This document shows positions 3,045-46,140 of a stretch of DNA of 64,000 nucleotides, piece by piece. Each line of letters opens with the position of its first letter. The first letter of the stretch is position 1. The notes beneath the pieces are model-generated. The model ran no database searches, was not told where the DNA came from, and saw nothing but the letters and a program-made list of their open reading frames with translations. The translations under genes and the position numbers were made by a program. Source of the DNA: an uncultured euryarchaeote (GTDB lineage: Archaea > Thermoplasmatota > Poseidoniia > Poseidoniales > Poseidoniaceae); NCBI GenBank assembly GCA_937915175.1, contig CALDNA010000016.1:54956-118955 (forward strand), given 5' to 3'.

Positions 3045-3141
3045 GCGGATATTTATCCCGTTAGAACTCACGCCCTCAAGACCTGTTCTTGAGGTAAGGT
3101 TCAAGACCGCGTTACCATCCAGCGGTTTAGAGGTGAACCGC

Positions 3142-4131: not shown

Positions 4132-4142
4132 GTGTGAACAGA

Positions 4143-9577: not shown

Positions 9578-10207
9578 TCAAGAATTAATTCGATCATGGA
9601 CAGCATGCATCACCAAGCGTGAACGAGCGGAGCATTCCTCCCTCATCCCAGTGGTAGCCTCTACAAGCGCCGATGACATTGATTCTGGTAATGATGAGAC
9701 GTTGATGTCTACATTGAACAGTGCCCCTTTGACGGCTGCACTCGCAAGCAACGATGCCACACCTACATCAGATGCAGCGTTCCCGTTTCCATTTCGGGCG
9801 AGGCCTTCTAAAACACCTAACAACTTCATGCCTAGTTGAGCAGTTTCCAACGGAACCTCTGCCGCTCTTAGGGTACCCGCACGGATCGCAGTGCGTCGTG
9901 TTGATTTCTCTTCTTCTGTTTCCTTTGGCATTCTAAAGGCTGCCACGACCAGATCAAAAGCATCGCTGTCTTCTTGAGCCAATGGACCCGAACGAGAAAG
10001 GACCTCGGCAGACACTTGACTTGCCACATCTGCTGCTGGCCAACCTGCGGACCATTTTTCCTTGCCGGTTGTAAGGTTGCAAACCATGGTGGTGAGGGCA
10101 GCGGCCTGGCCAAGAGCAACCGCAGCGGCAGTTCCACCACCGGGGGTGGGGTTATCCGATGCCAGAGCATCTTGGAAATCATTCAAACTCATCTCCATCC
10201 AATTCAT
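9578..10207 (-). CDS. Formimidoyltetrahydrofolate cyclodeaminase (FTCD C-terminal-like, stand-alone)
   Basis: LASDNPTPGGGTAAAVALGQAAALTTMVCNLTTGKEKW matches the cyclodeaminase/FchA family signature. The 4-nt overlap with the upstream formiminotransferase gene suggests translational coupling. Confidence 0.75.
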   Translation of the reverse strand: MNWMEMSLNDFQDALASDNPTPGGGTAAAVALGQAAALTTMVCNLTTGKEKWSAGWPAADVASQVSAEVLSRSGPLAQEDSDAFDLVVAAFRMPKETEEEKSTRRTAIRAGTLRAAEVPLETAQLGMKLLGVLEGLARNGNGNAASDVGVASLLASAAVKGALFNVDINVSSLPESMSSALVEATTGMREECSARSRLVMHAVHDRINS

Positions 10208-11268
10208 TGGCCCAACGCCTCCTTGAGTGCGTATTCAATGATTCTTTTTTCGGGATGAAATTTCTCAAGTTGATGTAGACCAAGGCCCTCAATCGCAGCT
10301 TCAACCAACGCTCGCTCCTCGGTAACACCCTCTTCGGCATACCAACGGCCTGACTCCAGCATTGCAGAAAGTGGAACGAGTCCTACCAGTTCACTACCGG
10401 GGACTTCGACCCCGTGATCTTGAGCGATGCTCTTGCATGCTTCAAATGCGACGTGCATCGGGCACTGACTCACATCCCTCAAATTCATTGACACTTGGCT
10501 CATTTGATGCGTTTCCAACGGCACACCCATGCCTTGAACGAGGGTCAGCATACCCGGGACCCTCATTTTACGCCCATCCTCCTTTTTGATAAGCCGGCCT
10601 GTTGAACGGACAAGCGATCCTACCTTGCGCGCTACGTCGGCATTCGGATCGCTCAAGTTGACGTTGTAAGCAACGAGTATCCCACGCGCACCAAAGGTGA
10701 TCGCCCCCGACTTGGCAACAACTTCGTTCCATCGGCGTGGACCGAAGTCGGGGTATCGAGTGTCGTCTTCGTGAATCGATGTGCCATCGGAAAGTCGATC
10801 TTCGAGACCCTCATACTGTCCTTTTCGAATAGTAGAAAGCAGCGTTTTTGCAGATGTGGATGCGGCTTGACCGTAGAGGAAGGTCGGGACGCTGCACGAC
10901 TTCGCCACACGTTCAGCCAATGAGGTTGCGAGTTTCGCACAATCCGTCATGGTCACACCATCAAGAGGAATGAAAGGGCACACGTCAACAGCACCAAGCC
11001 TTGGATGTTCACCTGCATGGTCGCGCATATCGATTTCCGCAATCGCCGTGCACACCAAAATGAAAGCCGCTTCAGATACTGCGGAAGGAGAACCTGCAAG
11101 GGTGATCACTGTGCGGTTGTAGTCTGCATCTGGCTCGACACCAAGAACGGCGCAACCATCTACTTGTGATGCAGCGTCGATTATGCGCTGAATTTTTTCT
11201 GAATCTCGTCCCTCGGATATGTTTGGGACACACTCCACTAAGCCTTCCATAAGCCTCGTTCCGCTCAC
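10204..11268 (-). CDS. ftcD: Glutamate formimidoyltransferase (FTCD N-terminal-like)
   Basis: Hallmark ECVPNISEGRD N-terminus. About 350 aa with two formiminotransferase subdomains. Confidence 0.8.
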   Translation of the reverse strand: MSGTRLMEGLVECVPNISEGRDSEKIQRIIDAASQVDGCAVLGVEPDADYNRTVITLAGSPSAVSEAAFILVCTAIAEIDMRDHAGEHPRLGAVDVCPFIPLDGVTMTDCAKLATSLAERVAKSCSVPTFLYGQAASTSAKTLLSTIRKGQYEGLEDRLSDGTSIHEDDTRYPDFGPRRWNEVVAKSGAITFGARGILVAYNVNLSDPNADVARKVGSLVRSTGRLIKKEDGRKMRVPGMLTLVQGMGVPLETHQMSQVSMNLRDVSQCPMHVAFEACKSIAQDHGVEVPGSELVGLVPLSAMLESGRWYAEEGVTEERALVEAAIEGLGLHQLEKFHPEKRIIEYALKEALGQ

Positions 11269-18137: not shown

Positions 18138-20177
18138 ATGGGCGATGCATTTCAGGGTTTGAAGGCCCACATCGCGGAGGGTATTCCTCTGGACTTGCCG
18201 CTACACCCTGGTCTTGATCCAAATGTCGATCATGCACCCCACCGCCGTCAAATTCTAACACAAAAAGAAAAGAAATTGGCCTTACGTAACGCTTTGAGGT
18301 ACTTTGATAGTGCACACCACGAAGTCTTAGCCCCAGAATTCGCAGAGGAACTGAACACGTTTGGCCGCATTGTAATGTGGCGGTTCCGGCCAACTGAATA
18401 CGAAATGAAGGCGCATCCAATCCATGCATACCCTGCCCGGTCTACGCACGCTGCTTCGATCATGCTGATGATTCAAAACAACCTCGATCCAGCGGTTGCT
18501 CAATTCCCTCATGAATTAATCACTTATGGTGGCAACGGCAGTGTGTTTCAAAATTGGGCACAGTACAGGTTGTGCATGCAATACCTCTCTCAAATGGATG
18601 ATGAGCAAACATTAGTGATGTATTCGGGACACCCCATGGGCCTGTTCCCTTCGAACGCAAACGCTCCACGTGTCGTCGTCACAAATGGCATGATGATTCC
18701 AAGCGAATCGACGCCAGACAACTATGAACGGCTCAATGCAATGGGCGTCACCCAATACGGGCAAATGACTGCTGGCTCTTACATGTACATCGGACCACAA
18801 GGCATTGTCCACGGCACAACCATCACCCTCCTGAACGCCGCAAGAGCTCATTTAGGTCTCGCTGGAGATGCAGGGCTCGGTGGTGTGACATTCGTAACCT
18901 CTGGCCTTGGAGGTATGTCTGGTGCTCAAGCAAAAGCCGCAGTGATTGCTGGTGCCTCATGCATCGTTGCCGAATCCAACGCTCATGCTGCGTACAAACG
19001 CCACGAACAAGGTTGGTTAACCGAGGTCACCGATGATATCGATGTGGCCATCGACCAGATGGTCGAAGCGGCTGACAATAAAGAAGCCAAATCAATCGGT
19101 CTTATTGGAAACATCGTGGAACTTTGGGAACGCTTGGTCGAGCGCAACATCAACGTCGACCTCGGCTCCGATCAAACAAGCCTCCACAACCCATTCCAAG
19201 GTGGCTACTTCCCGGTAGGGATTCCGTACGATGAAGCCGCTGCTATGCTTTCTGACAATCCCACTCTCTTTGCAGATGAAGTTCGCAAGACATTGATTCG
19301 GCATGCTGAAGCAGTCAATGCCATGTCCAGCAATGGAATGTACTTCTGGGATTATGGCAATGCGTTTCTCCTTGAAGCAAGTCGGGCCGGCGCAGATGTG
19401 TTGAATGACGACGGAACGTTCCGATACCCGAGCTACGTTGAAGACATCATGGGGCCAATGTGCTTCGACTATGGATTCGGTCCTTACCGCTGGGTCTGCT
19501 GTTCAGGCGACCCTAAGGATTTAGAGATCACAGATCGAATTGCAAAAGAAGTGTTAGAAGAGATGCTGGTTACAGCCCCCACTGAAATCACTCAACAAAT
19601 GAAGGACAACATTCGATGGATTACAGAAGCAGGCCAAAACAACATGGTTGTGGGTTCCCAAGCTAGAATTCTCTATGCTGATGATGAAGGGCGGCGCCGG
19701 ATTGCCTCTGCCATGAACAGCGCCATAGCCAGCGGCGAGTTGTCTGGACCAATTGTTCTTGGACGCGACCACCACGATGTATCAGGCACTGACAGCCCTT
19801 ACAGGGAAACCGCGAACATTCGAGACGGGTCCATGTGGACTGCTGATATGGCGGTCCAGAACTTCGTCGGCGATGCATTCCGAGGAGCCACCTGGGTTAG
19901 CCTTCACAACGGAGGAGGTGTTGGTTGGGGCCAAGTCATCAACGGTGGTTTTGGAATGCTTTTGGATGGGACTCAGGCGTGCGAAGAAAAACTCCAGTCA
20001 ATGTTGCACTGGGATGTTAACAACGGTGTTGCCCGCAGAGCATGGGCGCGTAATGACGGTGCTGATTTTGCAATCAAGCGCGCCATGCAGGCCGACAAAC
20101 GCTTGCATGTCACACTCCCTCATCATGCAAATGATGATGTGGTCGATCAAGCATTCAAAGGAGCGGGTATACAATGA
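18138..20177 (+). CDS. hutU: Urocanate hydratase (long, about 680-aa form)
   Basis: Full-length similarity to urocanase (NAD-binding GGMSGAQ region, ...GLGGVTFVTSGLGGMSGAQAKA...). 4-nt overlap with hutH. Confidence 0.9.
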   Translation: MGDAFQGLKAHIAEGIPLDLPLHPGLDPNVDHAPHRRQILTQKEKKLALRNALRYFDSAHHEVLAPEFAEELNTFGRIVMWRFRPTEYEMKAHPIHAYPARSTHAASIMLMIQNNLDPAVAQFPHELITYGGNGSVFQNWAQYRLCMQYLSQMDDEQTLVMYSGHPMGLFPSNANAPRVVVTNGMMIPSESTPDNYERLNAMGVTQYGQMTAGSYMYIGPQGIVHGTTITLLNAARAHLGLAGDAGLGGVTFVTSGLGGMSGAQAKAAVIAGASCIVAESNAHAAYKRHEQGWLTEVTDDIDVAIDQMVEAADNKEAKSIGLIGNIVELWERLVERNINVDLGSDQTSLHNPFQGGYFPVGIPYDEAAAMLSDNPTLFADEVRKTLIRHAEAVNAMSSNGMYFWDYGNAFLLEASRAGADVLNDDGTFRYPSYVEDIMGPMCFDYGFGPYRWVCCSGDPKDLEITDRIAKEVLEEMLVTAPTEITQQMKDNIRWITEAGQNNMVVGSQARILYADDEGRRRIASAMNSAIASGELSGPIVLGRDHHDVSGTDSPYRETANIRDGSMWTADMAVQNFVGDAFRGATWVSLHNGGGVGWGQVINGGFGMLLDGTQACEEKLQSMLHWDVNNGVARRAWARNDGADFAIKRAMQADKRLHVTLPHHANDDVVDQAFKGAGIQ

Positions 20178-21724
20178 GGCCAACAGTTCAACTCGATGGT
20201 ACAACGCTCACGCCCGCAGAGGTTGAACGGATCTCCACAAACCATGCCGATGTGAGTATTTCCGAGGCAGCATGGCAGCGGGTCAATGTAGCTCGAGATG
20301 TGGTCGAAGGCATCCTAGAGCGTGGAGAAACCGTGTACGGAATTAACACGGGGTTCGGCGCTCTTGTCCACCAACGTATTTCACCCGATGATTTGGCAAC
20401 GCTCCAAACAAACCTGATTCGATCCCACGCAACTGGCTTAGGCGAGCCAATGACTCGAGCCTCGGTTCGAGCAATGATGGTGGTGCGAATCAACTCCCTT
20501 GTGAAGGGTCACTCCGGTGTTCACCCTGAAGTTCTGGAACAACTCGTTTCTTTCTTGAATCACGACATCGTCCCCCATGTACCCCGAATTGGTAGTTTGG
20601 GTGCGAGCGGTGACCTTGCACCTTTGTCGCACATGGCCCTTGCACTGCTTGGTGAAGGGGAGGTTTTGTCAGAACAAGGCCAAGCAATATCGACTAAGGA
20701 AGTTTTGACAGAAAAAGGCATGATTGGGATAAAATTGCGTGCCAAAGACGGCCTCTCGTTGATCAATGGGACGAGCCAAATGTTGGCCTTCATGACGCTT
20801 GCCGAACGACGCCTCAACGCTCTCATGCCCTTGGCAGATCTAATTTTATGCACTTCGATGGAAGCGAGAAAAGCAAGCGTCAAGCCATCGGATGACCGTG
20901 TCCATCAAGCACGACCTCATCCCGGTCAACGCCTTGTTGCGGAACGGATCAGAACCATCATGGCTCATTCCCCCATTCTGGCGTCTCATGCAGACTGCGA
21001 TCGCGTTCAGGATGCATACTCCTTCCGTTGCGCACCTCAAGTCCATGGGGCAGTCTTACAACGGTACCATTCTCTCGTAGAGACACTCGAAATTGAACTC
21101 AACAGCGCTACGGATAACCCACTCATTTTCCCAGATCCACAGAACCCAGGGCCACATGAAGTGATTTCCCAAGGAAATTTCCATGGCGAAGTGATTGCCC
21201 TAGCTGCAGATTCCATGAGCGCTGCATTGTTTGAATTGGGCTCGATTTCTGAGCGAAGAATAGACCAAATGTTGGACCCGGCTCGCAGTGAATTGCCGGC
21301 ATTTTTGGCTCAAAACTCAGGGCTTGAATCAGGGTTGATGATCGTTCAATACGTCGCAGGGGCCTCACTTGCAGAACTGCACGGCCATGTCATGCCCCGT
21401 GCCGCATTTTCGACCAGTACATCGGCAGGTCAAGAAGACCATGTGAGCATGGGGGCAACCGCTGCATGGAACCTTCTGGAAGCAACAAAACGGCTCTCTG
21501 AAGTGTTGGCTTGTGAACTGTTTGTAGCGTGTGAAGCGCTTGAATGTGAAGAAACAGAACCGGCTCCCTTTGTTGCAGCTCTTAAGCAGCGCGTCCGGAC
21601 GATTGCAAAACCACTCACTGGTGACCGAAGCACAAGCAAGGAATTAATTTCGATTGCCGAGGAACTCTGTGATGGTGCATGGTTGGCCAGAATTGAAGCA
21701 GAACTGGGCCGAATACCACGTTAA
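20174..21724 (+). CDS. hutH: Histidine ammonia-lyase
   Basis: MIO-forming GSLGASGDLAPLSH motif and typical HAL length. Confidence 0.9.
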   Translation: MRPTVQLDGTTLTPAEVERISTNHADVSISEAAWQRVNVARDVVEGILERGETVYGINTGFGALVHQRISPDDLATLQTNLIRSHATGLGEPMTRASVRAMMVVRINSLVKGHSGVHPEVLEQLVSFLNHDIVPHVPRIGSLGASGDLAPLSHMALALLGEGEVLSEQGQAISTKEVLTEKGMIGIKLRAKDGLSLINGTSQMLAFMTLAERRLNALMPLADLILCTSMEARKASVKPSDDRVHQARPHPGQRLVAERIRTIMAHSPILASHADCDRVQDAYSFRCAPQVHGAVLQRYHSLVETLEIELNSATDNPLIFPDPQNPGPHEVISQGNFHGEVIALAADSMSAALFELGSISERRIDQMLDPARSELPAFLAQNSGLESGLMIVQYVAGASLAELHGHVMPRAAFSTSTSAGQEDHVSMGATAAWNLLEATKRLSEVLACELFVACEALECEETEPAPFVAALKQRVRTIAKPLTGDRSTSKELISIAEELCDGAWLARIEAELGRIPR

Positions 21725-22676: not shown

Positions 22677-24515
22677 GTGCCTATGACTGAAGACAAGACT
22701 GATGAAGTTGCCACAGGCGAATGTGGTGCTTGTCGAGCCGTTATCCCAATCGATTCTGAAGTATGCCCCGAGTGCAATATCTCCTTTTCCGGCGTCTCTG
22801 ATGAGGCACTGGGTGAATGTGGCGCTTGCCATGGTCTTGTCCCTCTCGATTCTACCAAGTGCACCCACTGTGGAACTGTCTTCATTGCAGATGATGTCGT
22901 TGATGTGTTGAGAAATTGGCTTGCTACAACCGGAATTACAATTCCAATGTTGTTCAAGAAATTTGACACCGATGGAGACGGGCAAATTGATTCCAGTGAA
23001 TTGAAAACTGGTTTGCTCAGTTTGAACCTCGCAGACCTCCCCCCTTCTCAAGTTGAACGATTGATTGAGACCATCGATTCAGATGGAGATGGACGTCTAG
23101 ACCTTGCCGAATTGCACGCAACGATCACTGGCGAAGAACTCACTGAAAGCGAACTCGAAACGCTCTCTTCTGATTCCAATAACGAAGAATCCACAAAAGA
23201 AGCGGAAGATGAAGCATCTGAAACCGACGAACAAATCGATGTGGATAACGAAGAACCTTCGGAAGGGGACGAAGAAGAATCATCCGAAGAAGATTCCATT
23301 GAAGAAGAATCTGATGAGGAAAGTACAGAGCATATCGAAGAAGACTCGACTGAAGAAGAACCCGAAGAAGTTGATTCAGAGGAAGAAGAAGCGTTGGAAG
23401 ACGATCTTGAACTCGGTGTGGGTGATGAAGACGAAGCAGAAAGCATACCTCTCATTCGAAGAATTGCCGATGCAATGGATGAAGAAGGAACTTCGCCCAA
23501 TTATTTCTTCTCTCATCTCGATCGAGATGCTGACGGTGCCGCAGATGTCAGTGAACTCACAAACGCGTTGAAGGGATTGCTGGACGACGAAGTTTCTTAC
23601 GATGAAATTGAACAGTTCCTTGTCGATGTTGATGGAGATGGGGATCGAAGAATCGACATGTTTGAATTCATAATCGCTCTTGAAGCACTCGATGATGCTG
23701 ACGAAGCATTGGAGGAAGATGATGGTGGGGAAACCGAAAAACCATTCCCTACGAAGTTGCAAAAAAGCATGATGGGCAAGCAGTGGAATGACATTGTTTG
23801 GCCACTGATGCATCTGGCCTTTGGCCTGTTCATTGCTCTTTTGGTGCTCAATGCCTTCGGTGGAATCGGCCCGCTCTCTGTTGATGGAACAGGAGGTCTA
23901 GTGGAACTCGAAGTCAAGGGGACCCTCATTCATCAAGATGGATTCGAGAACGGGGATGTTTACCCTTGCGACCCCGAATATCAAGTGGGTGATTGTAAAA
24001 ACTCACTCACACCGTTTGCAGGAGAATCCTCATCAATGCCCGCTGGATTTTATTGGGATGGCATTCTATTCATGGTTCTTGGTACAGGCGCCCTCATTGG
24101 TAGCCTTTATGCGCACCTAATTCTCATGGCTACATGGAGAGCACGTTCCCGAGCCATGAAGGAAGTTTTAGACGATCAATCCGACGCCTCCGAGGAAGCC
24201 CCATCAGATAATGATGCGGCAGAAGATGACGATGAACATCAAGAAGATGATTCCATTGAAGAAGAAATGGATGAAGTTCTGGAAGAAAATTTCGAAGAAG
24301 ATGAACTTGGTGAAGATGAAGATTCTGAAGAAAAATCCGAGGGCGATCCAGACGAAGAAATCGACATTGGTTCCCGCATTGGATTATCGCTTGAGGATGA
24401 AGAAGTCTACGGAAAAATCATTGAGTTTGACGATGATGAAGGAACCGTGACCATCAAAGAAGATGGCAGCGGTGAAGAAATCACAGGCTACCAAGACGAT
24501 ATTTTCTTGGAGTGA
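22677..24515 (+). CDS. Acidic EF-hand calcium-binding membrane protein with N-terminal double zinc ribbon
   Basis: Two CxxC...CxxC ribbons. Four EF-hand loops (DTDGDGQIDSSEL, DSDGDGRLDLAEL, DRDADGAADVSEL, DVDGDGDRRIDMFEF). Two TM helices and long D/E-rich tracts. Confidence 0.7.
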   Translation: MPMTEDKTDEVATGECGACRAVIPIDSEVCPECNISFSGVSDEALGECGACHGLVPLDSTKCTHCGTVFIADDVVDVLRNWLATTGITIPMLFKKFDTDGDGQIDSSELKTGLLSLNLADLPPSQVERLIETIDSDGDGRLDLAELHATITGEELTESELETLSSDSNNEESTKEAEDEASETDEQIDVDNEEPSEGDEEESSEEDSIEEESDEESTEHIEEDSTEEEPEEVDSEEEEALEDDLELGVGDEDEAESIPLIRRIADAMDEEGTSPNYFFSHLDRDADGAADVSELTNALKGLLDDEVSYDEIEQFLVDVDGDGDRRIDMFEFIIALEALDDADEALEEDDGGETEKPFPTKLQKSMMGKQWNDIVWPLMHLAFGLFIALLVLNAFGGIGPLSVDGTGGLVELEVKGTLIHQDGFENGDVYPCDPEYQVGDCKNSLTPFAGESSSMPAGFYWDGILFMVLGTGALIGSLYAHLILMATWRARSRAMKEVLDDQSDASEEAPSDNDAAEDDDEHQEDDSIEEEMDEVLEENFEEDELGEDEDSEEKSEGDPDEEIDIGSRIGLSLEDEEVYGKIIEFDDDEGTVTIKEDGSGEEITGYQDDIFLE

Positions 24516-25937: not shown

Positions 25938-27242
25938 TCAGTGGTGGCTGAGTTTTCCATTTAGCATGGTGGCTCTAAACGGGGTAGTCCCGGGCGAGTT
26001 GCACCAGCTCTGCCACTGGTTGCCGTTGAGAACATTGAGGTTCGCAGCCGCACCAACTTGGAGGCGGCCGTGAACAACTCCGTCTGGATGAGGTGAAGTT
26101 TCGGATGGGTTGCGGCTCGATGCGACAAGTGCGGCAAGTGGATCAACGTTGTTTCGGTGAACCAATAAGGAACCGATGAATGGTAAACTGAGTATGTTGC
26201 AATTGGGATTAAAATCTGTAGCGACCGACCAGCAGTATTTTTTCTCAATGGCTTGGTTGAACGACGGCCAAGGTTCACCCATGGTGTATGGAGTTCCAGG
26301 GAGGAATCCAGTGTTCACACCTGCATCTTGCATGTTCATACGCGTGTCCAATGGAGTGTGGTGAGCGTGGTCGGCAGTCACAACGCCCAAATCGGCCGCG
26401 AGTTCTCCGCCACCACCGTCAACAAATTCGTCAATGTGAATTCGTTGGCGCAAACCACCAGACTTTGCTGAACGCAAAATGTCTTCACTCTCTTCGACAG
26501 TAAACCATCCTGGTTCGCAGAACACATCGGCTGCGTTGGCTAATCCTTGATCCAAAACCGCTGGCAATTGTTCACTTAGTATCTCTTCTACATATTCTGA
26601 ACGTGTAAGATTCACCGGCGTGTCATGGGCACCCAACCAAGTGAGTTCCATAGAAGGGAGGTGATTGATTGAGTGGAGGTGATTGGCTACCTCGAGCAAC
26701 AGCAATTCACGTTCTGTCGAAAGGCCATAGCCGCTTTTAGTTTCCATGTGGGTTGTTCCATTGAGAAGCGCCAGCCTCATGCGCTGATAGCCGAGTTGCA
26801 CCAAAGCATCCTTTGAGGCTGATGCAGTCTGACGAACAGTGTGTTGAATCCCTCCACCGTTTGCGGCAATCGCTTGGTATGTCATGCCCTTTTGTTTCAT
26901 GGTTATTTCATTCGAACGATCGCCTGCCCAGAGCAGATGATTGTGACCATCGACAAGCCCAGGAACGACTGCATTCCCGCCGAGTGAAACAATGGTAAGT
27001 TGTTCCGTGGACGCATTCGGTCCGCCATACTCTTCCATGAGTTGCGATGATTCCTCAATAGATTCGATTGTGCCATCATTTATCACAATCCCCTTTCCAG
27101 CAGGAGATGTTAGTAAATCATAGTTGGACATATCGGCCCCAATGAGCGGTCCATCACCAGAGAGATGGGCCAACGGGCCTAGGTCGAGTAAGACGGTCCG
27201 CATTGTCATATGGTAGGGCTGAGGGTTGAAGAACAATGGCAC
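25938..27242 (-). CDS. hutI: Imidazolonepropionase
   Basis: Amidohydrolase motifs (VDGHNHLLWAGDRS, metal-binding His and Asp). Length and overall similarity to HutI. Alternative ATG start at 27209 (MTMRTVLL). Confidence 0.85.
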   Translation of the reverse strand: MPLFFNPQPYHMTMRTVLLDLGPLAHLSGDGPLIGADMSNYDLLTSPAGKGIVINDGTIESIEESSQLMEEYGGPNASTEQLTIVSLGGNAVVPGLVDGHNHLLWAGDRSNEITMKQKGMTYQAIAANGGGIQHTVRQTASASKDALVQLGYQRMRLALLNGTTHMETKSGYGLSTERELLLLEVANHLHSINHLPSMELTWLGAHDTPVNLTRSEYVEEILSEQLPAVLDQGLANAADVFCEPGWFTVEESEDILRSAKSGGLRQRIHIDEFVDGGGGELAADLGVVTADHAHHTPLDTRMNMQDAGVNTGFLPGTPYTMGEPWPSFNQAIEKKYCWSVATDFNPNCNILSLPFIGSLLVHRNNVDPLAALVASSRNPSETSPHPDGVVHGRLQVGAAANLNVLNGNQWQSWCNSPGTTPFRATMLNGKLSHH

Positions 27243-36079: not shown

Positions 36080-36649
36080 ATGGTAACACGAACAGAAGCA
36101 GAAAAGGCCGTATTGACCCTCTTGGGATACTTGGAAGACGATCCACAACGCGAAGGGTTGACCAAGACACCACAGCGTGTCATCGATTCTTGGGACGAAT
36201 TGTTTGCAGGTTACAAATTAAATGCCGCAGATCTACTCGATTCGACCTTTAACGGCGAGGGTTACGACGGCATTGTGTTGTTGCGTGACATTGAATTCCA
36301 CTCAACCTGTGAGCACCATCTTCAACCGTTCAATGGACGCGCCCACATTGCATACATTCCCGTTGAACGAATTGTTGGGATCAGTAAATTGGCTCGCATT
36401 ATTGATTTGCATGCTCGTCGCCTTCAAAACCAGGAGCGAATTACAAAGGGCATTGCTGATGATTTGGAGAAGCATTTGGCACCGCTTGGTGCCGCTGTCA
36501 TCATCGAAGCGTCCCATGGATGCATGCGCTGCCGAGGTGTGAAAAAGCAAAATTCAGTGATGACAACCTCCGCCATGCGGGGCGTGTTCTTCGAACGACC
36601 TGAAGCGCGTCAAGAACTCATGCAGTTGATTCAAGCCCGCCCTTTGTGA
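36080..36649 (+). CDS. folE: GTP cyclohydrolase I
   Basis: FHSTCEHHLQPF (CEHH zinc motif) and SHGCMRCRGV block. Confidence 0.85.
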   Translation: MVTRTEAEKAVLTLLGYLEDDPQREGLTKTPQRVIDSWDELFAGYKLNAADLLDSTFNGEGYDGIVLLRDIEFHSTCEHHLQPFNGRAHIAYIPVERIVGISKLARIIDLHARRLQNQERITKGIADDLEKHLAPLGAAVIIEASHGCMRCRGVKKQNSVMTTSAMRGVFFERPEARQELMQLIQARPL

Positions 36650-36658
36650 AGTGAGTCA

Positions 36659-37321
36659 ATGAGCGACCAAGAGTTCTGCCTCATCGCTGGCGAAACGCCG
36701 GTGGACAATCCAACAGACCTGGCAACGGTCTATCCTATTGTCGAGATCTTTCATTCGGTACAAGGCGAAGGATTCCACGCCGGCATACCTCATGTGTTCG
36801 TTCGATTGGGAACCTGCAATTTACGTTGTAAGTGGTGCGATACGGACTTTATGACCTTTGAAAACATGAACGCAATTGACATTCTTGCAAGCGTTATGGA
36901 ATTTGATTGCAAACGCGTCATATTCACTGGAGGAGAGCCAATGCTTCAGGACCTATGGCCCCTTCACCGGCTTCTGAAAGCACGAGGATACAACTTATCT
37001 GTGGAAACGAACGGAACCATCGAAATCCCTGAAGGTTTGCTCGACTGGGTTTGCGTTTCTCCAAAGGACCAGATGTACCCCGATGTGAAAATACGTCAGC
37101 GAACGGGGGACGAACTCAAGTGTGTCTATGTCGGACAAGACTTAGAATTATACAGTGATCTGCAACAAGGGTTCAAACATCATTTCCTTCAACCGTGCTA
37201 CATGGACACAGAGAGTGTAGAGTGGAATGGGAAGAACTTCGCCGAAACCGAAGCGGTTGTCAAGACAAATGCTCCGTGGCGATTGAGCCTACAAACTCAC
37301 AAATGGATGGGTGTGGATTAA
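36659..37321 (+). CDS. queE: 7-carboxy-7-deazaguanine synthase (radical SAM)
   Basis: CNLRCKWCDT radical-SAM CxxxCxxC cluster, about 220 aa, between folE and queC. Confidence 0.8.
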   Translation: MSDQEFCLIAGETPVDNPTDLATVYPIVEIFHSVQGEGFHAGIPHVFVRLGTCNLRCKWCDTDFMTFENMNAIDILASVMEFDCKRVIFTGGEPMLQDLWPLHRLLKARGYNLSVETNGTIEIPEGLLDWVCVSPKDQMYPDVKIRQRTGDELKCVYVGQDLELYSDLQQGFKHHFLQPCYMDTESVEWNGKNFAETEAVVKTNAPWRLSLQTHKWMGVD

Positions 37322-38475
37322 TGACCAAGCGCTCAGTTATGGCCCTTTCAGGAGGCATGGATTCTACAGCATTGCTTGTCCGCCTTTTGGCTGACGGGGC
37401 AAAGGTCAGCTGTATCTCATACAGGTATGGCCAAAAGCACAGCGTTGAACTCCAACGCGCCAAACAAAACATCGAATATTTACGCTCCAAAGGTGCCAGT
37501 GTCGACCACGTGGTTGTGGATTTGACTGGCGCAATGAGTCTGTTTGATTCTGCTTTGCTCGATGGAGGGGCGGAGATTCCTGAAGGTCACTATGAAGAAG
37601 AGCAAATGAAGGCCACAGTTGTACCAAATCGAAACGCTATTTTTGCATCCATTCTCTATGGCCACGCGCTCTCCATTTCATCAAGAGAATCCACTGATGT
37701 CTCGATTGCACTGGGCGTTCATTCGGGTGACCATGAGATCTACCCAGATTGTCGGCCAGAATTTTACACTGCCCTAGAACACGCATTCGCAATTGGCAAC
37801 TGGGACAGTGAGCGGGTGAAATTTCAACTTCCTTACTTGAACGGAAATAAGGTCACCATTCTAAAGGATGCGCTAAGGGCTTGCGACCAACTTGAACTTA
37901 ATTTTGACCGGGTTTTTGAAAATACAATTACCTCGTACAATCCAGATGCAAAAGGAAGAAGTTCGGGTCGAAGCGGCTCGGATGTCGAGCGCATTTTGGC
38001 CTTCAACGCACTAGATTTGGTCGATCCTATCGAATATGTTGAACCATGGGGCGTCGTGCTGGAAGCAGCCCTCGAGACTGAGAGAAAGCACAAGGATGCT
38101 TACTACAAAGAAAAATTATCCGAACTGCAATATCATGTCACACGCAACAGCGGAACTGAACAAGCTTTTACCGGAATTTACTGGGATGAGAAACGCAAGG
38201 GGACGTACACATGCGTCTGTTGCGGGCATGTCCTCTTCACATCAACAATGAAGTTCGATTCAGGCTGTGGCTGGCCTTCATTCCACAGCGAACACGCAAG
38301 AGCGGGAATCGTTCAAATTGAAGATCGAACATATGGCATGCTTAGGGTTGAAGTTCGCTGTAAAAAATGCGATGCTCACCTCGGTCACATTTTTGAGGAC
38401 GGGCCACGAAAGCACGGAGGCAACCGATATTGCATCAATTCAGCATCATTGAACTTCGAGGAGATGGAAGAATGA
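37321..38475 (+). CDS. queC: Fusion protein: 7-cyano-7-deazaguanine synthase QueC (PP-loop ATPase) N-terminal, peptide-methionine (R)-S-oxide reductase MsrB C-terminal
   Basis: Residues 1-240: SGGMDST PP-loop, YGQKHSVEL and VPNRNAIFASI QueC blocks. Residues 255-384: full MsrB (YHVTRNSGTEQAFTGIYW, CVCCG...CKKCDAHLGHIFEDGP, catalytic RYCINSAS). Continuous frame with no stop. The ORF-track start at 37195 overlaps queE and is rejected in favour of ATG 37321. Confidence 0.8.
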   Translation: MTKRSVMALSGGMDSTALLVRLLADGAKVSCISYRYGQKHSVELQRAKQNIEYLRSKGASVDHVVVDLTGAMSLFDSALLDGGAEIPEGHYEEEQMKATVVPNRNAIFASILYGHALSISSRESTDVSIALGVHSGDHEIYPDCRPEFYTALEHAFAIGNWDSERVKFQLPYLNGNKVTILKDALRACDQLELNFDRVFENTITSYNPDAKGRSSGRSGSDVERILAFNALDLVDPIEYVEPWGVVLEAALETERKHKDAYYKEKLSELQYHVTRNSGTEQAFTGIYWDEKRKGTYTCVCCGHVLFTSTMKFDSGCGWPSFHSEHARAGIVQIEDRTYGMLRVEVRCKKCDAHLGHIFEDGPRKHGGNRYCINSASLNFEEMEE

Positions 38476-38921
38476 CAACAAGAATCCGCAGATACGTCGA
38501 AACCGATACGGGCCATAGGGTTCCTAACCACAAGAGCAAGTGCCGACACATGCATGGCCATCGCTACAGATTTGAAGCGGAAATTGAAGGCGATGTGGTT
38601 CAGGAACGTGGAGTTTCAGATGAAGGCATGTTGATGGATTTCTCCGATGTGAGTGAAATCTTAACGCTTCATGTCCACGACATCATCGACCACGCTTTTG
38701 TTGTCTATGAGCACGATGAACAGGCACTTGCAGCGCTTGCATGCATGGAAGATGGGCACCGGACCCTGGTTGTTCCATTCATACCAACAGCAGAGAATCT
38801 AGCAAAATGGGCTTTTGAACAGGTTCAACCTCATATTGCTTCGGCGTACGGTAACCGATTGAAATTAGTGGCTATGCACGTGAGGGAAACACCGAAGAGC
38901 ACCGCTACATGGTATGCGTGA
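38472..38921 (+). CDS. queD: 6-carboxy-5,6,7,8-tetrahydropterin synthase
   Basis: CRHMHGHRYRFE (C.xHGH zinc/catalytic motif) and HNYxxE-like blocks. ATGA overlap with the preceding gene. Confidence 0.8.
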   Translation: MTTRIRRYVETDTGHRVPNHKSKCRHMHGHRYRFEAEIEGDVVQERGVSDEGMLMDFSDVSEILTLHVHDIIDHAFVVYEHDEQALAALACMEDGHRTLVVPFIPTAENLAKWAFEQVQPHIASAYGNRLKLVAMHVRETPKSTATWYA

Positions 38922-38927
38922 ATCGCC

Positions 38928-39773
38928 TCATTCCTCTTCGAGACTGATCTTTCGTCTACGTTGACTTCGCCAAATTTCGTTGCCCTCAACGAATTGAATA
39001 GCCGTAGTTGCATCGAGTAAGCCGCCAATCATTCGAGTAGCCTCACCTTGAGTGGGCATTGAACGCATGATTGAACGCATCAACGATTGTTGGAAACTTT
39101 GCCTTCGCTCATCGTTCCCCGGTAACGCACCTGCAAGTTCCTTCACGGTTTGCAAGAGAACCTGCTTCAATTCAGGGTTGAGTGCACGTTCGAGCGGAAC
39201 CACATCTGGCATCCCAGCATCCTTTCCTTGTGCGTTGATCACCCGATAGCGGTGCAGTTCGTAAACGCAGGCATTCACGGCGTGTGAAAGGTTGGCAATA
39301 GGATAGCCCTCCCATGTGGGCAGCGTCACTAAATAATCGCATTTAGCTAAATCTTCTGTGGACATCCCCTTCCCTTCTTCACCAAAAACGAGGCAAACAT
39401 GACCGTTGAAATCATTGACGCGCTCGGCTAACTCCCAAGGGTAAACGAAATGTCGAAAGTTTGTTTTAGCGCCTATTTCTCTTTTCCCAGAGGTCCCAAT
39501 CACCATCGAAGCGTCCGCAGTTGCCTCTTCCAAGGTGGTGTAGGTGGTGCATAAATCGAGCACCCTACCTGCATGCTTGGCCCGATTTCGTGCTTCAATA
39601 TCGTCCGCCTGACAATTTGGTGCTACAAGGCGCAAGTTGACAAAACCGTAGTTGAGCATCGAGCGGCACACGGCACCAAGGTTGCCCGGATGGGAAACGC
39701 CAATCAAAACAATGGATAGGCTGTAGGGCGAGGTTGGCAAGGGGAGCGTTGTTCTGTCACCCATTCCTTTCAC
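38928..39773 (-). CDS. SPOUT-class (SpoU/TrmH/TrmJ-like) tRNA/rRNA 2'-O-methyltransferase
   Basis: IVLIGVSHPGNLGAVCRSMLNYGF (motif 1), VIGTSGKRE, and a C-terminal knot region with NLSHAVNACVYEL. Confidence 0.7.
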   Translation of the reverse strand: MKGMGDRTTLPLPTSPYSLSIVLIGVSHPGNLGAVCRSMLNYGFVNLRLVAPNCQADDIEARNRAKHAGRVLDLCTTYTTLEEATADASMVIGTSGKREIGAKTNFRHFVYPWELAERVNDFNGHVCLVFGEEGKGMSTEDLAKCDYLVTLPTWEGYPIANLSHAVNACVYELHRYRVINAQGKDAGMPDVVPLERALNPELKQVLLQTVKELAGALPGNDERRQSFQQSLMRSIMRSMPTQGEATRMIGGLLDATTAIQFVEGNEIWRSQRRRKISLEEE

Positions 39774-41668: not shown

Positions 41669-42526
41669 ATGAAGGGCCCTGTCTTCCAAGGCTTGATGAG
41701 GAAGGCATTAGCCCAAAACCCGAACCTTTTGCGGACGCTGTTAGGTCTTTCTTTCACCCTTATATTTATGCTGTCATACGCCGTTTACGGCGCAACGGTA
41801 TCGCCCTCCTATTACCTCTATGATACAGATTCAACCCTCACCACCCATGAAAATATTGATCCAGTTCGCATCTATCAAGAAGACACGAACACGACGACTT
41901 GGACGTGGTCAGTGCCAGCCGACGGAGCGAACTTGACTTGGGTTAATCTCACTGCGGTTGAACTGTCGAACGGAGCCGAAGTGCGGTTGATCAACGGAGC
42001 TGGTTTATTCAGCCACCAGAAATTAGGCGTTGACGGAGCAGATGGGTTCAGTTGCCGAGACTCCTGTCAGAAAAACACAACACATTCCATCATCGTGGAG
42101 GAAGGTGGGGAAATATCGATTATCGCTCTGACGAGCACAGATCCCGCTCGACGCTCAAACGGAACCGTATACGCCCAAACTGAATCGGGAGCCAAAGAGA
42201 AGGCCCTTGATGCAATCGAATACGAACACTCACCGTCGCTCATCAGGGTTGAAATCATCGAAAAGGGCAACAGATCAACAGCCCCTGCCATGACCATCAC
42301 CACGGTGAATGAAGCGTTTGCATCGATTGGACCGTTTTCAGTGGATGCAGCAACCGAATTTTTGTGGGCTTTAGCGGCGGTAGTCGGTTGTTTTGCTATG
42401 GTGTTAATCCCTTCATTCACAGTATATTTTGCTGCCAACGCTAAAGAAAAGCGCGACGCAGTCAAACTGGCAGCATCGGAACAGGACATCAACGAAGCCT
42501 TAGGGACCCAAAACGAAGACGAGTGA
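41669..42526 (+). CDS. Membrane-anchored extracytoplasmic hypothetical protein (N-terminal signal/TM, C-terminal TM)
   Basis: Start at MKGPVFQ. The upstream part of the ORF-track frame lies antisense to rps19e. Hydrophobic segments at both ends with Thr/Asn-rich sites between them. ATGA overlap with the giant surface protein gene. Confidence 0.5.
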   Translation: MKGPVFQGLMRKALAQNPNLLRTLLGLSFTLIFMLSYAVYGATVSPSYYLYDTDSTLTTHENIDPVRIYQEDTNTTTWTWSVPADGANLTWVNLTAVELSNGAEVRLINGAGLFSHQKLGVDGADGFSCRDSCQKNTTHSIIVEEGGEISIIALTSTDPARRSNGTVYAQTESGAKEKALDAIEYEHSPSLIRVEIIEKGNRSTAPAMTITTVNEAFASIGPFSVDAATEFLWALAAVVGCFAMVLIPSFTVYFAANAKEKRDAVKLAASEQDINEALGTQNEDE

Positions 42527-45500
42527 AGCCGCCACTTTCCTCATATATGTTGAAGCGTTGTACTCGCACGAGCGCCATGATTCGTACGCCCGCAATTTTG
42601 TTGGTTGTCCTTTTCTTACTGGCTTCTGCCGCCCCAATGGCGGACCTAACAGATGCAGAAACCGACGTTTCAATGTCGGTTGCAAAAGCGACTGGTGTCG
42701 ATGTTACAGTGTCGAATGTTTCTTTTTCATACACAACCGCAGGGGATGAAGAGCGATACAGAATGTTCTCATCAAACCATCCGATTCCCGCATTCAATCG
42801 TCCTGCAGAACTCTATGTCGTGGACGCCGTTGTCGATGTCCCAATCTATGCTGAAGTTACAGTGGATAATATTGGAACCAGTGCATCAGGTAACATTGAT
42901 GTTGAACTCAAGGTATTCCATAACGAATATCAGCAATTTGAAATGATCAATACCACGAAGCAGATGCCTTCCCTTACGGGAGGGAGTTCGAACACCCTCG
43001 GATTTACGTTTACCCCAACGTATTCGGGAAACCATTCCCTCCAAGTTGTTGCTGCATCAACAATCGCTGACGACAACCCTGCCAACGACGACAGGAACCG
43101 GCATTTCACGGTAGCCTCACATTACTTCAATTGTGAAGTTCTTTCGGGCTGGACAATCACGAATGAATGGGGAATAAACTCTGAGACCTCCCTCTCACAA
43201 GGGACTGCCTGCCATGTCGGAAATGGAGCCTCATCCTCTTACACTGCATCGACAACCAGTGTCTTGGAAACCCCAGCTTTTGACATGTCGGATGCTGTGT
43301 CCAACCCCCTTAGAACGAACGGATTGAGTTTCTTCTACACGGGCAGTTCGCAACCAGGTGATGAATTGAAGGTTTATGTCCAAGATAACGCTGGAACAAA
43401 CACCCAACTGGGAGGCATTACTGGAACCGTCGATGAAGCCTTCATTGACGGAGTGAGTTGGCAAACATTTTCGGTCAACAGCCAGGGCATCACTTCGCCA
43501 CTTATTCCCGCCCCTCAAAGCGCTTTTACTTCTTCAACAAAATTCCGTTTTGTATTCACAACTGATGCTGTAACCAATGACATCGGATTTTGGATGGATG
43601 ACATCGTCATTATGTATGATCAAAAAGTCAAGCCAATCGAGTATGCCATTTCCTCCGCAGGAATCTCCACCATTGGATCCCTCCCTGATGAATGGGGGAG
43701 TGTTCAGGTGAGTTTGACAAATGAAGGGAACATCTCAGATTATGTGTTGCCGACCATTGAAGGCTTACCTGATGGCTGGGAAGTGTATTTTGCACACCTC
43801 ACTGGCGTTTCTATCAACGAGCAAACAGGAGTGTTATTGTCACCCGGTGAAACGAAGGCAATTGAAGTAAAAATCAGGCCCGACGTCAACGCCACAACTG
43901 GATTCGAGCAAATGACCTTCATCGGGACCTCCAGCCAATATGAATCAATTAACACTACACTCCCTGTCCAATTCCAAGTTCTTCCAGACAGAGAGCCGTT
44001 CATCGTACAGCCAGAAGTTCGACCAACATGCCCCCCTGGCTACAGTTGCCCGTTCACGGTTGAAGTGCAAAACATTGGGGATGCAACTGACGTGTTTGAT
44101 TTATCCATCGAACAGGGTGCTTTGCCAGAGGGATGGAGCGTGCAATTGGCATGGACTCAATCCACCTCAATTATGGTTCGACCAGACACCCCCGTGCAGG
44201 TCGCAATGACAATGACGATTCCATCCACTGCTGCGCCGGATACAGTGGCCCCATTCACGCTCATAGCCCAATCACAAAACAACACAGCTAAGCAACATCA
44301 AGCGGACATTAGTGTGTCAGCATCGATGATCAGTGAAGCGTACATTGGGATGACGACAACCCAAATGATGCGCGATTGGTTGGTTGATGCCGGTGAAACA
44401 AAAACTGTCGAATTCACCATCTGGAACAATGCGACGCGTCAAGATATTTTTTCGATGGAAGTGACTCACGAAGCAGTTGGTTTGTGGACCATCGAACAGC
44501 CAACTCGCCCAGACGCGGTGATAAATCCAGGCGCAAGCACCACCTTCACTGTGAAAGTAACTGCACCCGAAACAGGGCAAGCAGGTGACAAAGCACCCTC
44601 ACTTACGCCAACCATCACCTCGAAACGCAGTGGCATGTCCATCAGCGGTGAGATGTTTGACAACATCGTGGTCCGGACCATCAGCGACCTCACAATCACC
44701 CTGTTAGAAACGCCCGACAAATTAAGGCCGGGTACGGCCAATAAGGTCCTCATCGAAATCGTCAATCAAGGCAATGGACCGATCGATGCCATCGTAACAG
44801 CAGATGGACTGCCTGCAGCGTGGGATGCATGGATGAAAGTCAATGGCGATATTGTATCAGAGTCCATTGCCCTCTCTGCACCGTACGATTTGGACAACAA
44901 CGCAACTGTCGAGATGTGGATCGTTGTTCCGAGCGAAGAGGCGGCAAGTGAGATTCATACAATCACCATCATGGTTTCAAACGCCTTAGGATTGGAAGAC
45001 GTTCAAATTGAAGACAACAGCGTCACCTTCGATACCATCACGGCATCTGTACGCATTCCAGACCTCGTAGGTTCAAGTCAATCTCAATCCGCAATGGTTG
45101 GCGACACAGTGAGCGTCAACGCCACCTTACGAAACATCGGAAACGCTGCGGATGATGGAATCATTGTCCTTGCATCCTTTTCGAGTTCACCGCCCGAGGA
45201 AAACATTGTTGCATTCTTCACGACGAGCAAAGGTGGGTCTTCCAAATCTGTTGGTGAGGCTGTGACGATGATGCTTCTGCCCAACCAATCAACAACATTG
45301 ACAGTGGACCTGATTCTGCCGAACACAATGATTCTTAACACTCGAATTGTCGTTTCGTTTGAAGTCATTGCGGGACTGAACGCCGAAATGCAGCCTTATG
45401 AATTGAGGCATGAAGCATTAATCATCGTGGACCAACAACGCCAAATTGGAGCATCACTGAGCAGGGGGACCGATGAAGTATACCCTACTGGGACTGGTGT

Positions 45501-46140
45501 TCCGTTGTTTGTGAACATCACCAGTACCTCAAGCCAGCGCGAGGATCTTAGGTTACGAACAACGTTGCCCGAATCTTGGCAAATGGTGTGCAATGGCATC
45601 CTCGTGGATAAAGAAGGTCAAAATCTAACTTTTGAACCGGGCCACGTGGCTCCACAGTTATCCGATGTTCCATGCACCCTTCACCGTCTTGGCGGCCCGT
45701 TAGGGGGTATCGTAACATTTCAACTCGAGACAGAGGATGGTGCCCGTACATGGCAAACCAGCCAAGCGTATTCCTTCTCTGAACGCCCAACCGACCAAGC
45801 CTCGATGAATGTAGGTGCGATTGCTGGAGGTGGAGGTGCCCTTGTTGCATTTGTATTCCTGATGAGTGTCCTGCTTCGGGGTCGAAGCAAAGAAGAAGAA
45901 TTTGAAGAGGAAGTCAAAATTGTACCGCAGGAGTTCCAGCATAGTGGGCCGCCTGTCTCAACTGGGCCACCGATCTCAGCACCTCAAAGTTCCACACCTG
46001 CAGCACAAACTACAGAAGCACCAGCGGCTGCATCCAATGGTCCAGAAGTTCCACTCACCGGTTTACCATCCGGTTGGACGATGGAACAGTGGGCTCATTA
46101 TGGTCAACAATACCTTGACCGACTTGAAGGACAAGCATGA
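42523..46140 (+). CDS. Giant (1205 aa) cell-surface protein with signal peptide, multiple CARDB/Ig-like beta-sandwich domains and a C-terminal transmembrane anchor
   Basis: N-terminus AILLVVLFLLASAAPMA. Repeated beta-rich modules (VDNIGTSASGNIDVELKV, VQNIGDATDVFDLSI, IVNQGNGPIDAIV, LRNIGNAADDGIIVL). C-terminal GAIAGGGGALVAFVFLMSVLL TM, then a charged, Pro/Gln-rich tail. Confidence 0.7.
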   Translation: MKPPLSSYMLKRCTRTSAMIRTPAILLVVLFLLASAAPMADLTDAETDVSMSVAKATGVDVTVSNVSFSYTTAGDEERYRMFSSNHPIPAFNRPAELYVVDAVVDVPIYAEVTVDNIGTSASGNIDVELKVFHNEYQQFEMINTTKQMPSLTGGSSNTLGFTFTPTYSGNHSLQVVAASTIADDNPANDDRNRHFTVASHYFNCEVLSGWTITNEWGINSETSLSQGTACHVGNGASSSYTASTTSVLETPAFDMSDAVSNPLRTNGLSFFYTGSSQPGDELKVYVQDNAGTNTQLGGITGTVDEAFIDGVSWQTFSVNSQGITSPLIPAPQSAFTSSTKFRFVFTTDAVTNDIGFWMDDIVIMYDQKVKPIEYAISSAGISTIGSLPDEWGSVQVSLTNEGNISDYVLPTIEGLPDGWEVYFAHLTGVSINEQTGVLLSPGETKAIEVKIRPDVNATTGFEQMTFIGTSSQYESINTTLPVQFQVLPDREPFIVQPEVRPTCPPGYSCPFTVEVQNIGDATDVFDLSIEQGALPEGWSVQLAWTQSTSIMVRPDTPVQVAMTMTIPSTAAPDTVAPFTLIAQSQNNTAKQHQADISVSASMISEAYIGMTTTQMMRDWLVDAGETKTVEFTIWNNATRQDIFSMEVTHEAVGLWTIEQPTRPDAVINPGASTTFTVKVTAPETGQAGDKAPSLTPTITSKRSGMSISGEMFDNIVVRTISDLTITLLETPDKLRPGTANKVLIEIVNQGNGPIDAIVTADGLPAAWDAWMKVNGDIVSESIALSAPYDLDNNATVEMWIVVPSEEAASEIHTITIMVSNALGLEDVQIEDNSVTFDTITASVRIPDLVGSSQSQSAMVGDTVSVNATLRNIGNAADDGIIVLASFSSSPPEENIVAFFTTSKGGSSKSVGEAVTMMLLPNQSTTLTVDLILPNTMILNTRIVVSFEVIAGLNAEMQPYELRHEALIIVDQQRQIGASLSRGTDEVYPTGTGVPLFVNITSTSSQREDLRLRTTLPESWQMVCNGILVDKEGQNLTFEPGHVAPQLSDVPCTLHRLGGPLGGIVTFQLETEDGARTWQTSQAYSFSERPTDQASMNVGAIAGGGGALVAFVFLMSVLLRGRSKEEEFEEEVKIVPQEFQHSGPPVSTGPPISAPQSSTPAAQTTEAPAAASNGPEVPLTGLPSGWTMEQWAHYGQQYLDRLEGQA

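Follow-up and report, generated by a model that had tools for sequence, protein, structure and literature searches.

Why should an enzyme of tRNA modification be joined in one polypeptide to an enzyme of protein repair, and is this union connected with the loss of the zinc ligands that mark the first of the two? Both questions are raised by a single gene in a 64,000-nucleotide stretch of contig CALDNA010000016.1 (hereafter the window), which belongs to the genome assembly GCA_937915175.1 of an uncultured archaeon of the Poseidoniaceae (order Poseidoniales, Marine Group II). The gene, queC::msrB (37321..38475, + strand), is open over 384 codons plus stop. Its first part encodes QueC, the enzyme of 7-cyano-7-deazaguanine (preQ0) synthesis, and its second part encodes the methionine sulfoxide reductase MsrB. 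Judged from sequence comparison and genomic context, this is likely to be a lineage-conserved bifunctional gene that would pair a zinc-free QueC making preQ0 with a canonical MsrB, the two activities being independent and the gene having been fused from a translationally coupled pair. The fusion and the zinc loss are separate features, since zinc loss also occurs without fusion.

The in-frame fusion had been proposed in an earlier, sequence-only reading of this DNA, and a survey of relatives confirms it. Both Pfam domains are present in each of the 120 closest protein clusters (best clusters at 90% identity, with members 66–99% identical to the window protein), many of which are recorded on multiple contigs. 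These proteins are 376–399 amino acids (aa) long, apart from one partial sequence of 331 aa, and their named members come from Candidatus Poseidoniaceae, Thalassarchaeaceae or ‘Euryarchaeota’ metagenome-assembled genomes (MAGs). The identical window protein is recorded on six public contigs, and its 90% cluster includes NCBI entry MDA9117158.1 from a Poseidoniaceae archaeon. A homologue labelled Thalassarchaeaceae, at 67% identity, resides in the same operon with the same flanking SpoU methylase and ribosomal protein genes, and the fused gene is likewise found within a folE-queE-queC::msrB-queD operon on other Poseidoniales contigs.

An error of sequencing or assembly can join two neighbouring genes, and related species do have separate, adjacent queC and msrB genes that would lend themselves to such a mistake. 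This explanation is refuted by the 120 independent fused clusters, by the recurrence of the exact protein on six contigs, by the fused loci of 21 species represented in GTDB (see below), and by the independent genome GCA_028044985.1, which matches the window at 93% identity with zero indels and keeps the 384-codon open reading frame (ORF) intact.

Although abundant in public data, both the fusion and the zinc-free QueC clade described below appear to be undescribed, each domain being of a known family. We found no description of either in the literature searched, nor any relevant work on methionine sulfoxide reductase in the Poseidoniales or on archaeosine in Marine Group II. The architecture, which the sequence-only reading did not recognize, is not rare: it is widespread in the Poseidoniales, and its Pfam domains are already precomputed in public databases. 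Public names given to the fused protein are either ‘MsrB’ (NCBI) or ‘7-cyano-7-deazaguanine synthase’ (JGI), never both. In GCA_028044985.1 (JAOFTI010000001.1; positions 2263–3417 of our locus L166) only the last 138 of the 384 codons are annotated, as MsrB, and a 740-base unannotated gap lies at the QueC half. Comparable ‘MsrB’ records of 132–134 aa occur in two other clusters (P0304 and P0316). Because the fused protein is named only ‘MsrB’ or is half-annotated, pathway reconstructions can call queC absent, and queC, and hence archaeosine precursor synthesis, can be wrongly scored as missing in Marine Group II. The correction thus concerns a globally abundant group of ocean archaea.

Is the N-terminal half a genuine QueC? 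The domain (residues 1–242; 37321..38046, + strand) has the PP-loop ATPase fold, and Pfam QueC (PF06508) matches residues 5–230 with an E value of 4.5e-39 and 134.6 bits against a gathering score of 22, covering profile positions 2–208 of 210. Two QueC structures in PDB, 2pg3 and 3bl5, are matched with E values of 1e-20 and 1e-12, respectively, and PHROG 1550 is matched with 151.7 bits. The motifs SGGMDS (residues 10–15; 37348..37365, + strand), which binds ATP pyrophosphate, YGQKH (residues 36–40) and VVPNRN (residues 100–105) are all in place, and the Ser, Gly, Gly, Asp and Ser residues of the PP-loop are invariant in 68 canonical QueC sequences and in the window protein. A complete QueC bearing these motifs had been claimed from the sequence, and the near full-length Pfam match agrees with this, with the TIGR00364 score falling below its cutoff (see below).

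When the columns that are at least 90% conserved in the 68 QueC sequences with four zinc cysteines (Cys4) are compared (n = 38), 34 are identical in the window protein, and the zinc cysteines account for all four that differ. No domains besides QueC and SelR (MsrB) were found by Pfam in the fused protein, GATase, MsrA and thioredoxin included. A defence-type QueC, such as Cap9 of the type IV cyclic-oligonucleotide-based antiphage signalling system (CBASS) or QatC, was considered and ruled out: the PADLOC QueC model reaches just 42.9 bits over residues 3–52, and the neighbours of queC::msrB are que and ribosomal protein genes rather than CBASS or Qat partners.

The replacement of all four zinc ligands, also claimed at first sight of the sequence, is equally clear in a multiple alignment of E. 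coli MG1655 QueC, the window protein and 85 full-length representatives retrieved by searching 1.84 billion cluster representatives exhaustively. E. coli residues C188, C197, C200 and C203 align to S205, S215, S218 and D221, within the former zinc knuckle TITSYNPDAKGRSSGRSGSDVER (residues 202–224; 37924..37992, + strand), and the window protein reads TITSYN where both 2pg3 and 3bl5 read TLTCYN. Since the loop of residues 202–224 contains no Cys at all, no alternative register restores the ligands. Misaligned cysteines can also be ruled out on the grounds that the alignment to the 68 Cys4 sequences is unambiguous, with T..Y and ER..AF anchors flanking the loop. The nearest Cys4 relatives share a matching loop in which the cysteines are present (TxTCYxPDxxGRSCGKCGSCxER; an example is TITCYKPDSDGRSCGKCGSCTER), and the difference is therefore a clean substitution of ligands; neither a deletion within the loop nor misalignment accounts for it.

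The Cys-free loop has a conserved sequence of its own. It is maintained across all 120 closest homologues, and in 60 homologues residues T202, T204, Y206, P208, D209, G212, R213, G216, G219, D221, E223 and R224 do not vary. A few relatives (P0237, P0224 and P0258) carry Cys-Cys-Cys-Asp at the zinc positions and may be intermediate forms linking Cys4 with Ser/Ser/Ser/Asp. The papers on QueC and zinc that were consulted describe the site as conserved, and a zinc-free QueC clade is not mentioned in them.

The MsrB half (residues 266–380; 38116..38460, + strand) is canonical by every measure used. Pfam SelR/MsrB (PF01641) matches this segment with an E value of 4.3e-49 and 165.7 bits against a threshold of 24.9, NCBIfam TIGR00357 scores 173.8 bits against a cutoff of 113.05, and solved MsrB structures match the window protein at E values near 1e-39 in a PDB sequence search. 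By motif and alignment, the domain has the first zinc CxxC pair (CVCC, residues 298–301; 38212..38223), the GCGWP motif with resolving Cys316 (residues 315–319; 38263..38277), the second zinc CxxC pair (CKKC, residues 347–350; 38359..38370) and the RYCINS motif with catalytic Cys371 (residues 369–374; 38425..38442), all on the + strand. Every MsrB copy, fused or separate, retains the resolving and catalytic cysteines together with the two zinc pairs. The scores above both model cutoffs accord with the complete MsrB, with zinc pairs and catalytic Cys, that had been recognized in the letters. In addition, positions 227–351 of phrog_35155 (371 positions, function unassigned) match residues 256–380 of the window protein, which indicates that some phage proteins consist of an MsrB-like domain fused to another part.

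How the two halves are held together is suggested by an AlphaFold2 model built from 60 homologues (mean predicted local distance difference test score, pLDDT, 87.8; predicted template modelling score, pTM, 0.77). The last QueC helix is predicted to continue unbroken into the N-terminus of MsrB as a single helix of residues 243–265 at pLDDT ~90, corresponding to the junction WGVVLEAALETERKHKDAYYKEK (38047..38115, + strand; block pLDDT 89–94), and the former zinc loop is modelled at pLDDT 76–82. Foldseek matches the C-terminal part of the model to MsrB 3cez with a template modelling (TM) score of 0.89 and a root-mean-square deviation of 1.8 Å. The N-terminal part is matched to QueC 3bl5 (TM 0.77–0.79), to QueC 2pg3 (TM 0.70) and also to Cap9. 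In-frame Met codons are missing between residues 97 and 309, which makes a separate MsrB product from the fused gene unlikely.

How did the fusion arise? The genes surrounding it form a tight operon, as is evident from their overlaps and near abutments, and the folE-queE-queC-queD arrangement named in the sequence-only reading is upheld by both these junctions and the Pfam and NCBIfam assignments. The first preQ0-operon gene, folE (36080..36649, +), encodes GTP cyclohydrolase I of the type I, zinc-dependent family (Pfam PF01227, E 3e-67; NCBIfam FolE models above cutoff) and ends nine bases before the start of queE (36659..37321, +). The latter encodes a radical-SAM 7-carboxy-7-deazaguanine synthase (Pfam Radical_SAM; the best NCBIfam match, TIGR04508, has an E value of 1.7e-40 and is below the equivalog cutoff). 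The stop codon of queE and the ATG of queC share one base in the junction TAATG, and the TGA of the fused gene overlaps the ATG of queD as ATGA. The queD gene (38472..38921, +) encodes 6-carboxytetrahydropterin synthase, with a Pfam PTPS match at E 1.4e-25 and TIGR03367 as the best NCBIfam match at 79.9 bits, below the cutoff of 89.25. A convergent gene for a SpoU-family RNA 2′-O-methyltransferase (38928..39773, −; Pfam PF00588, E 7e-24) abuts queD at its 3′ end and is the same neighbour in most Poseidoniales loci; beyond it lie the genes for ribosomal proteins S17e, L31e, L39e and S19e.

A scan of GTDB, taking one genome per species, yielded 80 loci, of which 63 are archaeal and 17 bacterial. 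When these loci were searched with six window proteins, three operon states were seen among the archaeal ones. Fused queC::msrB is present in 21, a separate msrB directly follows queC in 28, and folE-queE-queC-queD occurs without msrB in 14. The last set includes L120, L148 and L149, which are Marine Group III-like, and also L115 and L117, which end too near a contig edge to be judged. Where the two genes are separate they usually overlap by four nucleotides (ATGA), and otherwise lie a few bases apart or overlap by 11–41 nucleotides. Fused or separate, msrB thus occupies the slot between queC and queD in 49 of the 63 archaeal loci.

Two forms of the fusion can be distinguished. Proteins of the window type are 383 or 384 aa long with a junction ending in ALETERKHKDAYYKEKLSELQYHVTR, and a shorter form of 364–368 aa has a junction ending in ALKAQLRYHVMKENGTE and an MsrB with a four-residue deletion before RYCINS. 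Relative to the separate genes, the window-type fusion is missing the last ~6 codons of queC and ~12 N-terminal codons of msrB, so that it arose by an in-frame deletion spanning the overlap rather than by simple read-through of a stop codon. The occurrence of the three states across species of one order documents that the fusion grew from a translationally coupled gene pair. The order of events would then be as follows: msrB was inserted between queC and queD, became translationally coupled to queC through overlapping stop and start codons, and was finally fused to it by a short in-frame deletion over the overlap.

Two independent fusions were considered on the strength of the two junction types and of single neighbour-joining trees, which place the window type beside one group of separate genes, but this proposal was dropped for insufficient bootstrap support. 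In the MsrB alignment, a split uniting all fused proteins receives 57% and the grouping of the window type with one set of separate genes (type A) 28%, and in the QueC alignment the all-fused split receives 1%, the alternatives being poorly supported too. Since the bootstrap does not settle the count, we limit the claim to at least one fusion.

Two oddities among these loci concern the MAGs themselves. One 4.3-kb contig (L111; CALDQY010000058.1), labelled as an uncultured Rhodobiaceae bacterium, carries a Poseidoniales folE-queE-queC-msrB-queD-SpoU locus nearly identical in type to L099, L144 and L156, so that a binning error probably brought it into a bacterial MAG. In two fused-type loci (L140, positions 4390–4995, and L146, positions 4077–4986) queE matches as two or three pieces in different frames, which may reflect frameshifts or assembly errors in the MAGs.

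Is the zinc loss a consequence of the fusion? Among the 150 nearest representatives at 50% identity, MsrB is carried by the Poseidoniales cluster alone, and many others are stand-alone Cys-free QueC proteins of 242–272 aa with loops of the types SSSD, SSTD, SPTD and SDSS, named for the residues at the four ligand positions. A pattern scan of IMG/VR found that at least 579 viral stretches encode relatives; of the best 80, 71 are Cys-free, five are Cys4 and four are not classifiable, and the SDSS type makes up 57 of the 80. The cultured Flavobacterium phage vB_FspM_immuto_3-5A encodes an annotated QueC without the four zinc cysteines (QQO91946.1; L002, positions 5992–6873), which is of the SDSS type with a long insertion within the loop.

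The 17 bacterial loci, assigned to Pirellulaceae, Planctomycetota and Mariniblastus plus one Pedosphaera, also encode stand-alone Cys-free QueC. Their ligand positions are mostly Ser, His, Thr and Asp, with a conserved His at the second, a set seen in the Planctomycetota MAG loci L093, L102, L108, L113, L114, L118, L137, L139, L153, L155, L158, L160 and L162. No other que genes are clustered alongside these bacterial copies, and one Planctomycetaceae copy lies on a 1.66-Mb contig amid unrelated chromosomal genes. Two IMG/VR contigs (L009 and L010) of ~28–30% GC encode SSSD-type QueC that groups in a neighbour-joining tree with the Marine Group III-like L120, L148 and L149; these contigs could be from viruses of those archaea or could be misclassified cellular fragments.

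The stand-alone proteins of viruses, phage immuto, Pirellulaceae and Marine Group III belong to the same subfamily as the QueC of the fusion (44–60% identity) and have the same or similar loops (SSSD, SSTD, SHTD, SNTD and SDSS). Unlike the fusion they have no MsrB domain, and the SDSS loop of the phage differs by insertions. The Cys-free loop of the fusion is also that of stand-alone QueC proteins and of Poseidoniales whose msrB is missing or separate; zinc was therefore lost before the fusion and independently of it. The change from Cys4 to Ser/Ser/Ser-Thr/Asp would thus have taken place earlier, in a clade common to marine viruses, Planctomycetota, Marine Group III and Poseidoniales.

This distribution also bears on the proposal, made in the sequence-only reading, that MsrB substitutes structurally for the lost zinc module. 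By this account the zinc-containing MsrB docks on QueC as a brace, and it is true that a zinc domain lies ~25 residues past the former zinc knuckle and that the linker is predicted to be rigid. However, QueC with the same Cys-free loop stands alone, as a protein of 258–272 aa, in viruses, in a cultured phage, in Planctomycetota, in Marine Group III and in msrB-less Poseidoniales; msrB encodes a separate polypeptide in 28 species; and the Cys-free loop retains a conserved sequence of its own. These observations contradict the proposal and make a brace highly improbable.

Among the relatives surveyed, many metagenomic QueC proteins, apparently viral, contain inteins (P0122, P0123, P0136, P0139, P0147, P0153, P0156, P0179, P0257, P0258 and P0140). 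In most, the intein is inserted at a conserved GDH|C...HN|(S/C)IYPDC site. That of P0140 lies inside the zinc knuckle (CGS|C...HN|CTER), where the fourth zinc ligand is the residue that directly follows the intein. Four of the intein-bearing QueC proteins were scanned with Pfam, which recognizes Intein_splicing, Hint and LAGLIDADG domains in them.

If zinc loss and fusion are separate, does MsrB nevertheless serve the preQ0 pathway? In such an arrangement MsrB might repair methionines of QueC (Met13 and Met96), QueE or FolE, making the pathway resistant to oxidation, and the removal of an oxidation-prone Cys4-zinc site would suit a sunlit, oxic habitat. The persistent position of msrB between queC and queD, fused or overlapping, speaks for this account; so do the two different fusion junctions (383/384 aa and 364 aa), the predicted rigid helix at the junction, the invariance of Met13 (in the PP-loop SGGMDS) and Met96, and the clear purifying selection on MsrB in all copies. 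Yet the SGGMDS Met and the Cys-free loop are also found in viruses, Planctomycetota, Marine Group III and some Poseidoniales that have no msrB there, repeated independent fusion is not established by bootstrapping, and persistence of the msrB slot shows co-transcription and not mechanistic coupling. As a whole we regard functional coupling as unlikely.

A broader version, to which we would likewise give a small chance when taken as a whole, is that of an oxidation-proofed preQ0 pathway. Here a hitherto unrecognized zinc-independent QueC isozyme, passed horizontally between marine viruses, Planctomycetota and Marine Group II/III archaea, would have gained an MsrB partner of its own, first as a coupled neighbour and then by fusion, possibly repeatedly, which would keep QueC or the pathway active under photo-oxidative stress. 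The three operon states offer natural controls for the functional meaning of the association with MsrB.

We favour instead two independent activities in one polypeptide. The N-terminal ~245 residues would act as a zinc-free QueC that converts 7-carboxy-7-deazaguanine to preQ0 in an ATP-dependent reaction, preQ0 presumably being the precursor of archaeosine at position G15 of tRNA in these archaea, a fate modelled on the archaeosine route via preQ0 in archaeal tRNA modification (PMC5699537). The C-terminal ~120 residues would form a two-cysteine, zinc-containing MsrB reducing methionine-R-sulfoxide. The two domains, linked by a rigid helix, would most likely work independently. That QueC is active without zinc in the Cys-free clade is most likely, given that every other conserved residue is kept, that this is the only queC in a complete operon and that the clade has been maintained. 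We infer the activity of the MsrB half, the independence of both activities and the use of preQ0 for archaeosine in the same manner, from family membership and context.

Several observations weigh against this assignment. The QueC half scores 128.7 bits with NCBIfam TIGR00364, under the equivalog cutoff of 150.3. In QatC, a distant defence protein of the QueC family, changing the four zinc cysteines to Ala severely reduces function (PMC13639016), and since QatC needs its zinc cysteines, zinc-free activity is not to be taken for granted; the enzymatic activity of the Cys-free QueC is itself something that we infer from conserved residues. That msrB has persisted in this slot at 49 of the 63 archaeal loci, and that the linker is predicted to be rigid and not flexible, could mean functional coupling. 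Also, the archaeosine tRNA-guanine transglycosylase (arcTGT) was not found among the 35 window ORFs scanned, although its gene can lie elsewhere in the genome. The sole tRNA in the window carries G15.

The low TIGR00364 score and the importance of the zinc site in QatC are also what might be expected if the QueC half were inactive or altered in its chemistry, the gene then being an MsrB with an N-terminal passenger. QueC forms preQ0 by way of the amide intermediate ADG (7-amido-7-deazaguanine; PMC5699537), and an altered enzyme could, for example, stop there. Such a change is quite improbable in view of the 34 intact conserved columns, which include the PP-loop, the position of the domain as sole queC in a complete and conserved preQ0 operon, and the retention of the clade, under evident purifying selection, in many viruses and cells.

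What could have driven the loss of the zinc site? One proposal is economy: in surface seawater, where zinc is scarce, giving up the Cys4 site would have saved the metal, in parallel with zinc-independent, Zur-regulated paralogues such as FolE2. The cellular carriers are marine and pelagic (Poseidoniales, Marine Group III and marine Pirellulaceae), and for Neisseria meningitidis a table of the Zur regulon lists queC among the genes whose regulation differs when zur is mutated (PMC6103462). But the same protein retains a zinc-binding MsrB, and the operon has the zinc-dependent type I FolE instead of FolE2, both of which weaken a zinc-sparing account; and a saving of one zinc atom per QueC, while others are kept, is a weak driver. 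We therefore consider zinc economy improbable.

Compared with canonical QueC, the QueC of the fusion is alike in fold, PP-loop, 34 of 38 conserved columns and operon partners (folE, queD and queE). It differs in the exchange of four Cys for Ser/Ser/Ser/Asp, in having SGGMDS for SGGQDS and in its C-terminal MsrB. Canonical MsrB proteins (E. coli 6SYM, Burkholderia pseudomallei 3CEZ and human MSRB3) show 52–54% identity to the MsrB domain in the best Foldseek alignments, with TM scores up to 0.89. They are free-standing or fused to MsrA or thioredoxin, whereas here MsrB is helix-linked to the C-terminus of QueC.

Fusions of each family are known. Gat-QueC, in which QueC is joined to a class II glutamine amidotransferase in archaea and in phage 9g (PMC5699537), brings in pathway-related nitrogen chemistry, whereas MsrB repairs proteins and is not known to act in the pathway. 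MsrA-MsrB and Trx-MsrA-MsrB (PilB) proteins show that MsrB is often fused, and the MsrB domain here aligns well with them, but their partners belong to the same repair system, unlike those of QueC-MsrB. A natural and widespread QueC clade that lacks the Cys4 hallmark and is otherwise conserved provides a direct route to the role of zinc in this family; if the Cys-free enzymes are active, zinc is dispensable for catalysis.

The remainder of the window is ordinary archaeal chromosome, with genes for the DNA primase small subunit, a PAN-like AAA ATPase, tRNA intron endonuclease, Kae1, methionyl-tRNA synthetase and ribosomal proteins. Genes for histidine utilization are scattered over it (9578–11268, −; 18138–21724, +; 25938–27242, −) and comprise formiminotransferase and cyclodeaminase (two ORFs), urocanase, histidine ammonia-lyase and an amidohydrolase, a set that fits the degradation of proteins and amino acids by which Marine Group II has been described to live. 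At 22677–24515 (+) lies the gene for a 612-aa protein with EF-hand calcium-binding motifs. The ORF at 42523–46140 (+) encodes a protein of 1205 aa, hydrophobic at its N-terminus and again in a C-terminal segment, which is probably a surface protein.

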